Positions 25,108 to 30,074 of a stretch of 64,000 nt of DNA are shown here, piece by piece. Made by a program: the position numbers and the translations under genes. The first letter of the stretch is position 1. Each line of letters begins with the position of its first letter. The DNA is taken from the NCBI GenBank assembly GCA_904396155.1, contig CAJFOI010000034.1:16959-80958 (forward strand), written 5' to 3'. The stretch comes from Candidatus Avispirillum faecium (GTDB lineage: Bacteria; Bacillota; Clostridia; Oscillospirales; CAG-272). Below the pieces are notes generated by a model. The model saw only the letters and a list, made by a program, of their open reading frames with translations, was not told the DNA's origin and did no database searches.

Positions 25108-27192
25108 ATGAAAAGAACGATCTATTGCGGGCTGGTGCGGGAAGCGCAGATGGGAACGCGGCAGACCTGCTGCGGATGGGTCCAGACAAAGCGGGACATG
25201 GGCGGCGTCGTTTTTGTGGACCTGAAGGACAGAGAAGGAATTTTGCAGGTTGTGTTTGACGCGTCCAATTTGCCGGCGGACGCTTTCAAGGAGGCGGACG
25301 GACTGCGCAGCCAGTCCGTCATCGCAGTGTCCGGTGTGATCCGCCGACGCAGTGAGGATACCTACAACCCCCGTTTGGAGACCGGGACAGTGGAGCTGTA
25401 CGCAGATTCCCTGGAACTGCTTTCTCAGGCGCAGCAGCTGCCCTTTTCCATGGATGACAATATCAGCGTGCGGGAGGATCTGCGCCTGCGGTATCGGTAC
25501 TTGGATCTGCGCAGTCCCACCATGCTGAGAAATCTGCGGGCACGTCACCTGGTACAAAAGGCCAGCCAGGATTATCTGGACAGTCAGGGGTTTATATGCG
25601 TGGAGACCCCCATGCTGTGCAAGTCTACGCCGGAGGGGGCAAGGGATTATTTGGTTCCCAGCCGGGTCCATCAGGGGTGTTTTTACGCATTGCCCCAGTC
25701 TCCCCAGATTTACAAGCAGTTGCTCATGGTAGGGGGGATTGACAAATATTATCAGGTGGCCCGATGCTTTCGCGACGAGGATTTGCGTGCGGACCGCCAG
25801 CCGGAGTTTACGCAGGTGGATATGGAGATGTCTTTTGTGGATCAGGAAGACATCCTTATCCATCTGGAAAAAATGTTCCGGCATATTTTCCATACGTTTA
25901 CCGGCCAGGAGATCGAAGGAGCTTTCCCCCGACTTACCTGGCAGGAGGCCATGGACCGGTACGGCAGCGACAAACCGGATCTGCGGTTCGACCTTCCCAT
26001 CGTAGATGTCACAGATCTTGCTGCCGGCTGTTCTTTCAGCGTATTTCGTTCTGTTTGCGACAAAGGCGGCGTTGTGCGGGCCATTAACGCCAAGGGGTGT
26101 GCTGACTTCACCAGAACCCAAATTGAAATGCTCACAGAAAACGCGCTTTCCTATGGCGCAAAAGGGATGGCTTGGATTGCTGTTCGCCCCGACGGGGAAA
26201 TCTACTCGATTTTGACAAAGTACTTCACCGAAGCGGAGATGCGTGCGCTTCTGGACCGCATGGGGGCTGTTCCCGGGGACTTTGTATTGTTTTCTGCGGA
26301 TACACTCTCTACCGTGCGCCGTGTTTTGGGCAGCCTGCGCCTGGATGTAGCGGAAATTTTGGGACTGCGGGACAAGAAAAAGTTTTCCTTTTTGTTTGTC
26401 ACGGATTTTCCCCAGTTTGAATATTCCGAAGAAGAAAAACGGTACGTTTCTACCCATCACCCTTTCACCATGCCTTATCCGGAGGATTTGCAGTATCTCT
26501 TTACCGATCCGGCAAAGGTGCGTGCACAGGCATATGACGTAGTGCTCAATGGGATTGAGCTGGGCAGCGGGTCTATCCGTATCCACCGGCAGGATATTCA
26601 GGAAAAAATGTTTGAGGCATTGGGCTTCGACAAGGAGCAGATCGAAAAGCGGTTTGGCTTTATGGTAAATGCATTCCGGTACGGTACGCCGCCCCACGGA
26701 GGCTTTGCCTTTGGGTTGGACCGGTTGGTCATGCTTCTGCTGGGCGCCGATTCCCTTCGGGATGTGATCGCGTTTCCCAAAATCAAAGATGCTTCCTGTC
26801 CGATGACGGACGCGCCTACGCCTGTAGATCCGGAGCAGCTTGCCGTACTGGGCTTGGATAAGCTTTGGGAAGCCGGTACAGACGGTACAGGGGAGAAAAA
26901 AGAAAAGGTGCCGCAGATCGATGTGGCTGCGGTAGCGGGGCTTGCACGTCTGTCTTTTTCGGCAGAGGAGATGCAGAGCCTGCAGGCCGATATGAAAAAC
27001 ATCATCGCCTTTGCAAATCAGCTGTCGCAGGCGGATACCACCGGTGCGGCCGCGGCAGAGCACATCGTTCCCATGGAAAATGTATTCCGGCCGGATGAGG
27101 CAGAGCATCTCTTTGACAGAGAAGAACTGCTGGCAGCTGCAAAAACCAAGGAAGACGGATATATCACCGTTCCCCGTGTTGTGGAAGGATAG
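25108..27192 (+). CDS. aspS: aspartate--tRNA ligase fused to a C-terminal GatC domain (probably a non-discriminating AspRS)
   Basis: 694-aa uninterrupted ORF. Residues 1 to about 590 are a complete bacterial AspRS (MKRTIYCG...[11 protein letters not shown]...[23 protein letters not shown]...GLDRLVMLL...AFPK). This is followed by a linker and a GatC-like sequence. Confidence 0.9.
   Translation: [694 protein letters not shown]
26908..27189 (+). other. gatC: GatC-like domain encoded in frame at the 3' end of the aspS ORF
   Basis: [44 protein letters not shown]...[15 protein letters not shown]...[14 protein letters not shown] aligns by eye along the full length of Bacillus GatC (ISIEEVKHVAHLARLAI...FAEELNEVDT...MREDEA...KDGYIRVPSILD). 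Confidence 0.8.
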
Positions 27193-27197
27193 AGCAT

Positions 27198-28640: not shown

Positions 28641-28643
28641 GAT

Positions 28644-30074
28644 ATGCAGATGCTCAAGGACTATGAAATGGTGATCGGGCTGGAGGTCCATGTGGAACTG
28701 AAAACCAGGACAAAGATCTTTTGCTCCTGCCCCACAGATTTTGGCGCGCCGCCCAATACCCAGGTCTGTCCGGTTTGTCTGGGGCTGCCGGGGACGCTAC
28801 CGGTACTCAACGGCAAGGTGGTGGAGTATGCGGTGAAGGCGGGTCTTGCCACCAACTGCACCATTGCCCGCTTTTCCAAGCAGGACCGGAAAAACTATTT
28901 CTATCCGGACCTGCCCAAAGCATATCAGATTTCCCAGTATGATCTGCCTTTGTGCGAGCACGGCTGGCTGGATATTGAAACGGCAGATGGGACAAAGCGC
29001 ATCGGGATCACCCGGATTCACATCGAGGAAGACGCCGGAAAGCTGATGCATGACGATGAAAAGGGGACAATGATCGACTGCAACCGCTGCGGTGTTCCTC
29101 TGATCGAGATCGTCAGCGAGCCGGATATCCGCAGCGCCGAGGAGGCAAAGGCATACTTGCAGAAGCTGCGGGCCATTATCTTGTACACAGGTGTGTCGGA
29201 TTGCAAGATGAACGAGGGATCTCTGCGGTGCGATGTCAATCTGTCGGTGCGAAAAAAGGGCACGGAGACGTTCGGCACCCGCACGGAAATGAAAAATCTG
29301 AATTCTTTTCAGTTTATTGTGAAAGCGATCGAATATGAATACAAGCGGCAGGTGGAGGCCATAGAGGCTGGAGAAAAGATCGTTCAGGAGACCCGGCGGT
29401 TCGATGCGAATACAGGGAAAACCTATTCCATGCGCACCAAGGAAAATGCCAACGACTACCGGTATTTTCCCGATCCGGATCTGCCGCCCATCAAATTGAC
29501 GGAAGAAAAGATTGCCTCCCTCCAGGCTGAGATTCCTCGGCTGCCGGATGCTCGCAAGCAGGAGTATATGGAAAGATATGGCCTGTCTGCCTATGACGGA
29601 GAAGTGCTGACCACCAATATGGCGATGGCGGATTATTTTGAGGCGGCTGCGGCGCAGACCCGGTATCCCAAGCTGGTGGCCAATATGCTCTTGTCCGAGG
29701 TGATGCGCCTTGCAGGCGGCGAGGAGGATGTCTGCAGAATTCAACCCTCCCGCATGGCTGCGCTTGCGGATTTGTCCGGGGACGGGATCATCAATTCCGC
29801 CACCGTGAAGAAGCTGATCAAGGAGCTGTGGGAGACGGACTTTGACGTGGCCGATAAGGTAGAGCGGGAAGGGCTTGCCCAGGTGAGCGATGAGATGATC
29901 CTCCTGGAGTGGGTGCAGGAAGCCATCCGGCAAAATCCAAAATCTGTTGCAGATTATAAGAAGGGAAAAAAGGCCGCCGCGAAGGCGATCGTGGGCAAAG
30001 TGATGGCAGTGTCTGGCGGACGGGCCAATCCTACCGTAGTGGATCGCTTGGTGGAACTGGAGCTGAATCAGTGA
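28644..30074 (+). CDS. gatB: Asp-tRNA(Asn)/Glu-tRNA(Gln) amidotransferase subunit B
   Basis: 476 aa with VIGLEVHVELKT, CPVCLGLPGTLPVLN and a C-terminal YqeY-like tail. Confidence 0.96.
   Translation: MQMLKDYEMVIGLEVHVELKTRTKIFCSCPTDFGAPPNTQVCPVCLGLPGTLPVLNGKVVEYAVKAGLATNCTIARFSKQDRKNYFYPDLPKAYQISQYDLPLCEHGWLDIETADGTKRIGITRIHIEEDAGKLMHDDEKGTMIDCNRCGVPLIEIVSEPDIRSAEEAKAYLQKLRAIILYTGVSDCKMNEGSLRCDVNLSVRKKGTETFGTRTEMKNLNSFQFIVKAIEYEYKRQVEAIEAGEKIVQETRRFDANTGKTYSMRTKENANDYRYFPDPDLPPIKLTEEKIASLQAEIPRLPDARKQEYMERYGLSAYDGEVLTTNMAMADYFEAAAAQTRYPKLVANMLLSEVMRLAGGEEDVCRIQPSRMAALADLSGDGIINSATVKKLIKELWETDFDVADKVEREGLAQVSDEMILLEWVQEAIRQNPKSVADYKKGKKAAAKAIVGKVMAVSGGRANPTVVDRLVELELNQ

Follow-up and report, generated by a model that had tools for sequence, protein, structure and literature searches.

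We report that in a stretch of 64,000 nt from Candidatus Avispirillum faecium (GCA_904396155.1, contig CAJFOI010000034.1, 16,959-80,958 of the forward strand; this whole stretch is hereafter called the window, and all coordinates are window positions) a gene for aspartyl-tRNA synthetase (AspRS) continues in frame into a complete gene for GatC, directly 5' of gatA and gatB. The fusion, aspS::gatC, was confirmed to be genuine, complete on both sides and conserved. Upstream of it we found a T-box leader with an Asn specifier codon. We consider it likely that this T-box(Asn)-controlled aspS::gatC-gatA-gatB operon serves the indirect synthesis of Asn-tRNA(Asn), and that its products form an Asn-transamidosome in which AspRS is covalently tethered to the amidotransferase.

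The aspS::gatC fusion and its conservation

The fusion gene is a single uninterrupted open reading frame (ORF) of 694 aa (Table 1), as an earlier note on this DNA had described. Pfam detected tRNA_anti-codon (PF01336) at residues 20-105, tRNA-synt_2 (PF00152) at 123-559 and GAD (PF02938) at 313-406, and the AspRS moiety matched the NCBIfam models NF001750 (aspartate--tRNA ligase; 813.5 bits, cutoff 443, residues 1-584) and TIGR00459 (741.7 bits, cutoff 373.85). By this full-length, above-cutoff match and its three domains the fused AspRS is a bacterial-type aspartate--tRNA ligase, and its best match among solved structures is chain M of 4WJ3, the Asp/Asn ligase of Pseudomonas aeruginosa (E 1.6e-173). 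The C-terminal part matched Pfam GatC (PF02686) at residues 617-688 (E 2.8e-15, 56.7 bits, cutoff 23, model 1-66 of 66) and NCBIfam TIGR00135 gatC at residues 603-693 (75.5 bits, cutoff 47.1, model 3-93 of 93). These scans with hidden Markov models agree with the earlier note, which had read the ORF as a full bacterial AspRS followed by about 90 aa of an entire GatC; its placement of gatA 5 nt after the stop and of gatB next is likewise supported by the ORF positions and family scores. GatC is therefore encoded directly 5' of gatA-gatB but joined to AspRS, not as a free-standing protein of ~95 aa. A Shine-Dalgarno-like GGAAGGA for gatA sits inside the 3' end of gatC. All protein parts of an Asn-transamidosome are encoded here, namely the AspRS and GatC moieties, GatA and GatB.

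The note had also stated that there is no separate gatC, which held for the 64-kb window, where tblastn with the GatC moiety found no second GatC-like coding potential. The window carries no tRNA(Asn) gene, its sole tRNA gene being tRNA-Arg(CCG) (49967-50043, - strand). The 602-aa AspRS paralogue that the note had pointed out at 57058 is indeed present and lacks GatC; it is ~49% identical (48.6%) to the fused AspRS and is presumed to be the housekeeping enzyme.

We then asked how far the architecture extends among relatives, which are referred to below as loci (L) and proteins (P). In a search of a 5.8-billion-protein collection, all of the 120 best matches analyzed were ~694 aa long, carried PF02686 together with the AspRS domains and were 67-100% identical; one protein of this family has the UniRef label 'Multifunctional fusion protein'. 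A scan of one genome per species gave at least 585 relatives, and the best 80, which we analyzed, all matched residues 1-693/694 at 64-96% identity. These 80 are Clostridia of the Oscillospiraceae, Ruminococcaceae and Acutalibacteraceae types, mainly metagenome-assembled genomes from the gut, and they include the cultured isolates Ligaoa zhengdingensis NSJ-31 (NZ_JACRST01) and Bittarella massiliensis (NZ_JABFCL01). In 82/82 related loci, which represent at least 80 species, an unbroken ORF of 676-707 aa spans the junction. A gatA-sized ORF begins at -23 to +67 nt from the fusion end in all of these loci whose contig was long enough, and gatB was next in order in those having gene calls. The catalytic core of AspRS is highly conserved, with QSPQ among its family-invariant columns, and near-invariant positions in GatC reach its C-terminal ...DGYxTVPRVVE; judged from these alignments, the GatC part is clearly under purifying selection.

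The two moieties are connected by a linker, which the earlier note had recognized and estimated at ~17 aa; it measured 20 aa. Across 83 sequences the linker is 18-27 aa long (median 21) and its sequence is not conserved, although it is rich in K, A, G, E and S and usually has a Lys cluster right before GatC. We used an AlphaFold2 monomer model (38 sequences, mean predicted local distance difference test score (pLDDT) 71.9, which is moderate) for linker disorder only. The AspRS body was mostly confident, and pLDDT fell below 50 at residues 557-573, 580-583 and 587-601, covering the tail and the linker; the linker is thus predicted to be disordered and flexible. For GatC the model predicted two helices (606-612 and 619-640) and, towards the C-terminus, a hairpin (680-687), and this part was not confidently packed on AspRS. 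This picture fits the published view of GatC-type subunits as unstructured belts of GatA-GatB (PMC4027206).

The T-box leader

The 1.2-kb region 5' of the fusion contains no convincing ORF, and it harbors a T-box leader with a promoter-like site directly upstream. The leader was missed by the default Rfam scan, which applies the gathering threshold, and was seen with permissive filters. It has the elements that define a T-box: a Stem I specifier loop, a T-box with a UGGN bulge, and a terminator competing with an antiterminator. On its 3' side the specifier loop has the sequence GAAG-AAC-A. AAC encodes Asn, which makes uncharged tRNA(Asn) the signal that the operon is built to sense and connects the operon independently with indirect Asn-tRNA(Asn) synthesis. 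The UGGC bulge would pair with the 3' end of the tRNA, G73-CCA.

Of the 78 relatives whose available sequence reaches far enough upstream, 63 have a T-box core before the fusion, usually 83-180 nt away from its ATG, and the T-box elements are shared by these 63 leaders. This count is a lower bound, because the strict regular expression used for the T-box missed variant leaders, for example those of L015 and L050; Rfam at the gathering threshold found no T-box in the 15 loci negative by this expression. The specifier columns A, A and C are invariant in all 63 aligned leaders. The fused aspS, which stands in one operon with gatA-gatB, is thereby coupled to gatCAB and to Asn-responsive regulation, a genomic context in keeping with a non-discriminating AspRS (Asp/Asn ligase). 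The base after AAC is a purine in 61 leaders and the base before it is G in 46, T in 9, A in 7 and C in one; the bulge is UGGU in 50 and UGGC in 13. The link between a T-box and the fusion operon is new here.

The G preceding AAC in 46/63 leaders makes GAAC, in which GAA (Glu) and AAC (Asn) overlap; in the window this lies in the 8-nt specifier-loop side at 24285-24292. The 'NT-box' of Clostridium acetobutylicum reportedly has overlapping Asn and Glu codons and binds both tRNA(Asn) and tRNA(Glu). By its sequence, a GAAC leader would allow the same codon overlap.

Leaders differ within the family. A subclade of eight loci (L019, L021, L023, L024, L026, L033, L037 and L039) has no T-box and carries a strong promoter, TTGACA...TATTATAT, ~100 nt 5' of the fusion, which suggests that the operon may be constitutive there. 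We considered whether L019 and L023 carry a gene for tRNA(Asn) before the fusion, and rejected this: the gene in L019 is tRNA-Arg(CCG), and ARAGORN found none in L023, where there is only a weak Rfam tRNA match clipped by the contig end. In the window a block of intergenic repeats inserted between the terminator and aspS has widened the distance from the T-box core to the ATG to 707 nt; similarly long leaders occur in L006, L009, L011, L030, L032 and L038. A consensus scan found no promoter-like site between the terminator and the ATG. Repeats of the same family stand 3' of gatB, a further related copy is located at 3987-4142, and an exact 38-nt copy, AAGGGGGCTGTCAGCGTGAGCTGACTGGGGGATTGTTT, occurs at both 24875 and 30587; the family may be REP- or MITE-like.

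Table 1 Positions of the operon, its leader and related features in the window
Feature	Position	Strand	Description
Promoter-like site	24154..24182	+	TTGACA, 17-nt spacer, TACACT, TG before -10; 10/12 consensus matches (consensus scan only)
T-box leader	24201..24437	+	Rfam RF00230, 90.7 bits, E 4.2e-20, model 1-219 of 219
Specifier codon AAC (Asn)	24289..24291	+	Rfam alignment and sequence; 3' side of loop GAAGAACA
T-box core motif GGTGGCACCGCG with UGGC bulge	24401..24412	+	Rfam alignment and sequence
Intrinsic terminator	24422..24464	+	15-bp hairpin, then TTTTTTGTGA; terminator scan and RNA fold
Intergenic repeat block in leader	24500..24930		Inserted between terminator and aspS start; related copies elsewhere in the window
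aspS::gatC fusion gene	25108..27192	+	One uninterrupted ORF, 694 aa, 78.2 kDa
AspRS moiety, residues 1-583	25108..26856	+	OB anticodon-binding domain, class II core, GAD insertion
Linker, residues 584-603	26857..26916	+	20 aa, between '...LGL' (583) and 'IDV' (604)
In-frame GTG, Val601	26908..26910	+	GGGGAG 12 nt upstream
GatC moiety, residues 604-694	26917..27189	+	PF02686 and TIGR00135 above cutoff
gatA	27198..28640	+	480 aa; TIGR00132, 632.8 bits, cutoff 481; begins 5 nt past the fusion stop
gatB	28644..30074	+	476 aa; NF004012, 653.5 bits; Pfam GatB_N and GatB_Yqey
Repeat block 3' of gatB	30143..30624		Three tandem 154-nt units; same family as leader block
Unfused AspRS paralogue	57058..58866	+	602 aa; NF001750, 813.8 bits; without GatC, outside the operon

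Fusion lineages and surrounding genes

The free-standing GatC proteins nearest to the fused GatC are 94-100 aa long, begin with their own Met and are 45-59% identical to it. One of them, P0135, is encoded in a locus (L089, 1328-4504, and L090) where htrA is followed by a terminator and a promoter and then by gatC, gatA and gatB; it has no aspS and no T-box. HtrA, GatA and GatB of this locus are 59%, 68% and 72% identical to the window proteins, which is as close as in fusion-bearing genera such as Ligaoa (GatA 68%), and htrA stands directly upstream also in the window, L004, L006, L008, L010 and L011. The simplest history suggested by this synteny is that a T-box and an aspS paralogue were placed before an ancestral gatCAB and that aspS was fused in frame to gatC. 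Alternatively, the L089 lineage may have lost aspS and the T-box.

The same order of domains is known to databases. NCBIfam NF009460 (PRK12820), named 'bifunctional aspartyl-tRNA synthetase/aspartyl/glutamyl-tRNA amidotransferase subunit C', describes AspRS followed by GatC in one chain, and the window protein shares this architecture; it scores 629 bits against a cutoff of 1379 (model 24-670 of 723) and is not a member of this equivalog family. We searched for relatives of the junction in a library of representatives at 50% identity, which returned mainly cut fragments and was unusable for counting fusion families; many matches of ~150 aa begin at Met542 of cut genes. Divergent junction-spanning proteins do exist, and fragments at 34-50% identity led us to two full-length proteins of 723-724 aa, both of which match NF009460 end to end: P0273 over model positions 21-723 (979 bits) and P0274 over 18-723 (1003 bits). 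Their best 120 relatives all carry PF02686 and come from Desulfobacteraceae, Desulfatiglans and other Desulfobacterota. These fusions of ~720 aa resemble the window protein in the order AspRS-linker-GatC and in the arrangement aspS::gatC-gatA-gatB (L087). On the other hand, they are 42% identical to it overall and 32-34% in GatC, their linker is 26-35 aa long compared with 18-27 aa in Clostridia, their GatA and GatB are 53% and 43% identical to those of the window, and no T-box was found in the two Desulfobacterota loci examined. By these comparisons the fusions of Clostridia form a lineage apart from the curated family of Desulfobacterota. In another locus of this group (L086; Desulfobacteraceae CP070700.1), the fusion and gatA are followed by only a 77-aa GatB_N fragment (9745-9975), and integrase genes lie upstream; this copy may be decaying or recently transferred.

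Pairwise identities and synteny also bear on how often the fusion arose. Free-standing Firmicute GatCs resemble the window GatC far more than the fused GatC of Desulfobacterota does. The window AspRS shares 48.6% identity with its own paralogue and slightly less, 45-47%, with the Desulfobacterota fusions. Two independent fusion events, one in Clostridia and one in Desulfobacterota, are therefore probably a better account than a single one.

The earlier note had known of no characterized example of this architecture. It is in fact already catalogued, as NF009460/PRK12820 and under the UniRef label, and it occurs in at least 80 Clostridia species and many Desulfobacterota. As to experiments the note still stands: we found no description or experimental study of a natural AspRS-GatC fusion in the full-text literature, in a search of open-access coverage with most subscription journals outside it. 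The fusion thus appears to be widespread, known to databases and experimentally uncharacterized. Most such proteins are labelled plainly as 'aspartate--tRNA ligase', and gatC consequently seems to be missing from the genomes that carry them.

The rest of the window contains several other gene groups. A V-type ATPase operon (subunits D, B, A, C/AC39, E and I) occupies 4127-12527 on the - strand. At 31519-36923, a carbohydrate ABC transporter (substrate-binding protein TIGR03850 and two permeases) is followed by lacto-N-biose phosphorylase, and by its gene content this is a galacto-N-biose/lacto-N-biose utilization cluster; such clusters are characteristic of gut bacteria feeding on glycans from the host or from milk. 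One-carbon and methionine genes lie at 43848-51867, namely those for methylenetetrahydrofolate reductase (43848-44744), a cobalamin-dependent MetH-like protein (45403-47808) and formate--tetrahydrofolate ligase (50176-51867). Four + strand ORFs, 167-1882 (571 aa), 37057-38379 (440 aa), 41247-42971 (574 aa) and 42964-43797 (277 aa), had no Pfam match at E<=1e-5.

Proposed mechanism, alternatives and known systems

A tethered transamidosome is the most coherent reading of the locus because the Asn specifier ties the operon to the indirect pathway. The earlier note had raised the same reading as a question, and the conserved position of the fusion before gatA-gatB and the Asn T-box fit it; its suggestion of an internal start and its view of novelty fared less well. 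In the proposed mechanism, uncharged tRNA(Asn) would pair with the AAC specifier and the UGGC bulge and block the terminator, and the operon would be transcribed. The first product would be AspRS joined by a flexible, hydrophilic tether of ~20 residues to a complete GatC, and this GatC, with its C-terminus free, would capture one GatA-GatB pair per AspRS-GatC chain. AspRS enzymes are dimers, and the expected assembly, with GatA of 51 kDa and GatB of 53 kDa, is therefore (AspRS-GatC)2(GatA)2(GatB)2 of ~365 kDa, which would form independently of tRNA. We infer that the AspRS moiety would aspartylate tRNA(Asn), that GatA and GatB would bind through the fused GatC in this stoichiometry, and that Asp-tRNA(Asn) would be channelled to the tethered GatB/GatA for amidation with little escape to translation. 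GatB recognizes the U1-A72 pair of tRNA(Asn), and any Asp-tRNA(Asn) that escaped would lead to insertion of Asp where codons call for Asn. For Asp-tRNA(Asp) the cell would rely on the separate AspRS at 57058. The tether would raise the local concentration of the partners and fix a 1:1 stoichiometry, and would still let AspRS swing away.

Several observations weigh against this proposal. The T-box of the window scores 2.3 bits below the RF00230 gathering score of 93. Asn-responsive control is not universal, as the subclade without a T-box makes clear. In this strain ~650 nt including repeats separate the terminator from the ATG, and an unnoticed promoter may lie inside this long leader. A particle dedicated to Asn would be too simple a picture if GatCAB also makes Gln-tRNA(Gln). 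Finally, the fused AspRS lacks the His and Gly that are found in solved non-discriminating enzymes.

This last point concerns two positions in the anticodon-binding domain (31 and 83 in P. aeruginosa), which reportedly influence recognition of tRNA(Asn) and which we compared in residue-level alignments. The Asp/Asn ligases of P. aeruginosa, Mycobacterium tuberculosis and Helicobacter pylori have His (...RDHGG) and Gly (...PEG/GAG...NP), E. coli AspRS has Leu and Lys, and Thermus thermophilus AspRS1 has Leu and a gap. The window fusion has Met31 and Asp84, and its Clostridia family has Met in 83/83 and Glu or Asp in 81/83; the unfused paralogue of the window has Leu and Gly. The Desulfobacterota fusions keep His (122/122) and Gly (120/122), which the window fusion does not. 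For this family we dropped the use of these two residues as a classifier of non-discriminating and discriminating enzymes; its Met with an acidic residue matches neither His/Gly nor Leu/Lys. The His and Gly of non-discriminating enzymes being absent, it is the gene context, and not a sequence signature, that suggests charging of tRNA(Asn): an Asn-specific T-box, the joining to GatC and an operon shared with gatAB.

One explanation of this signature is that the fused enzyme is an AspRS dedicated to tRNA(Asn), comparable to the tRNA(Gln)-specific GluRS2 of H. pylori, while the paralogue serves tRNA(Asp). It would account for the presence of two AspRS paralogues at 49% identity in the region, for a signature of its own, unlike that of either the non-discriminating or the E. 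coli enzymes, and for expression control by tRNA(Asn) rather than tRNA(Asp). We nevertheless regard it as unlikely, for two positions are a weak predictor and the His and Gly retained in Desulfobacterota indicate that fusion needs no new specificity. A broader scheme would combine an obligate, tRNA-independent (AspRS-GatC)2(GatA)2(GatB)2 with such a tRNA(Asn)-dedicated 'AspRS2' (Met31/acidic-84), a paralogue serving tRNA(Asp), and independent origins in Clostridia and Desulfobacterota. We put it forward tentatively, as possible and yet doubtful in its entirety; if true, it would be a natural experiment for selection on channelling in indirect aminoacylation.

Another possibility is that the working GatC is a free chain, made from the GTG at 26908 or by proteolysis of the linker, so that the fusion would provide co-expression and not tethering. 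The internal GTG and the GGGGAG before it, to which the earlier note had drawn attention, are present, and the site is where a free GatC would begin (TIGR00135 matches from residue 603); moreover, a linker predicted to be disordered and rich in Lys would be exposed to proteases. The start is, however, not conserved. Up to a distance of 8 codons from the GatC boundary, 74/83 loci lack any ATG, GTG or TTG in frame, and near this boundary an ATG and a Shine-Dalgarno-like motif each occur in one locus only; GTG at the Val601 codon is found elsewhere only in L006 and L081. Because of these 74 loci, internal initiation of free GatC is not a conserved property as judged from the alignments, and the GTG with its Shine-Dalgarno-like motif is best taken as a local accident. 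The narrow range of linker lengths, in the second lineage as well, is what a tether predicts and a cleavage spacer does not, and the occurrence of the fusion in two separate phyla speaks for selection of the covalent connection as such. Free GatC as the working form is hence quite unlikely, although its release by proteolysis is conceivable.

It can also be imagined that the AspRS moiety is an ordinary discriminating, housekeeping enzyme, and that its fusion is a neutral by-product of adjacency with no functional coupling. Although the missing His and Gly and the plain promoter of the T-box-less subclade would agree with this, an Asn T-box stands before the fusion in at least 63/78 loci, a separate AspRS is encoded within the same 64 kb, linker length is kept, and the fusion persists down to 64% identity in at least 80 species and in a second lineage of another phylum. 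In addition, the syntenic unfused relative suggests that aspS and the T-box were added to the gatCAB locus as a unit. A neutral fusion is therefore very improbable.

That a missed stop or frameshift joined separate aspS and gatC genes by sequencing or assembly error, which one window alone could not rule out and for which a 100-aa 'free' GatC (P0130) on a 735-nt contig might be cited, is effectively refuted, because the same junction occurs in independent assemblies (L004 and L005; GCA_902491665.1 and ERZ827506; 99.8% DNA identity) and in all 82 related loci including isolates, with both domains in every one of the 120 best database homologues and the frame and length of the linker kept despite drift of its sequence. 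The window differs from the otherwise identical P0001 (691 aa) and from L004 and L005 by a 9-nt in-frame indel at 25567-25575 (residues 154-156, QDY), which is in the AspRS body and far from the junction. P0130 itself is encoded at 379-681 of L088, the 735-nt ENA contig; it starts with MKRT, the N-terminus of fused AspRS, and goes directly into GatC, and upstream of the gene a specifier-like string, GAATAACAC, almost abuts a T-box-like GGTGGCACAGC. From its sequence this looks like an in-frame loss of the whole AspRS body, or a mis-assembly.

A natural link of AspRS to GatC would fix both stoichiometry and proximity; the bacterial-type transamidosomes known so far are transient assemblies that the tRNA holds in place. 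Such a link has been kept in at least 80 species of gut Clostridia and recurs in Desulfobacterota. The fusion offers a test system for channelling versus simple co-expression under selection, for the sharing of GatCAB between the Asn and Gln pathways, and for the specialization of a second AspRS paralogue. The cultured carriers Ligaoa zhengdingensis and Bittarella massiliensis make such experiments feasible.

Among known systems, the P. aeruginosa Asn-transamidosome (PDB 4WJ3; Suzuki et al. 2015, as cited in PMC8762117) is like the window set in that a bacterial-type, GAD-containing AspRS acts with GatC, GatA and GatB on tRNA(Asn). There, GatC is a separate chain in a non-covalent complex, whereas in the window it is fused; the two enzymes also differ in the anticodon domain, with His and Gly in P. 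aeruginosa against Met and Asp in the window fusion. The H. pylori Asn-transamidosome is dynamic and tRNA-dependent, and AspRS departs from it after charging, which the authors tie to sharing of GatCAB with the Gln pathway (PMC3367201). It combines a bacterial-type AspRS (non-discriminating in H. pylori) with GatCAB, as is proposed for the window, and has the same aim of not releasing Asp-tRNA(Asn); its association is transient, however, and the covalent tether would make it permanent. In C. acetobutylicum, a T-box controls tRNA-dependent amidation (Saad 2012, 2013, as cited in PMC4206432 and PMC4574755). According to these citing papers, the resemblance to the window extends to a T-box over the AspRS/GatCAB route to Asn-tRNA(Asn) and to extra AspRS copies, and what they describe includes no AspRS-GatC fusion. 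Physical coupling of an aminoacyl-tRNA synthetase to part of an indirect-pathway machinery is also seen in Deinococcus radiodurans GlnRS, whose C-terminal YqeY/GatB-like domain aids tRNA binding (PMC1865053), and in the SepRS-SepCysE-SepCysS transsulfursome, which uses a separate bridging protein (PMC5688128); both differ from the window in their enzymes and in their logic.

Covalent joining of GatC to a partner protein, as in the window, has been obtained in the laboratory. A GatC-GatA fusion selected in Mycobacterium smegmatis was viable and gave more mistranslation, with a contact between the GatC hairpin and GatB predicted to be disturbed, and no natural gatC-gatA fusion was present among ~500 gatCAB loci (PMC7541841). 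That fusion is made through the C-terminus of GatC, whereas in the window the N-terminus is used and the C-terminus stays free. An N-terminal extension of a GatC-type subunit is known from GatF of the yeast mitochondrial GatFAB, which forms a GatC-like belt around the GatA-GatB interface and tolerates a large N-terminal appendage (PMC4027206). The appendage of GatF binds GatA and is no aminoacyl-tRNA synthetase, whereas in the window the appendage is AspRS itself.

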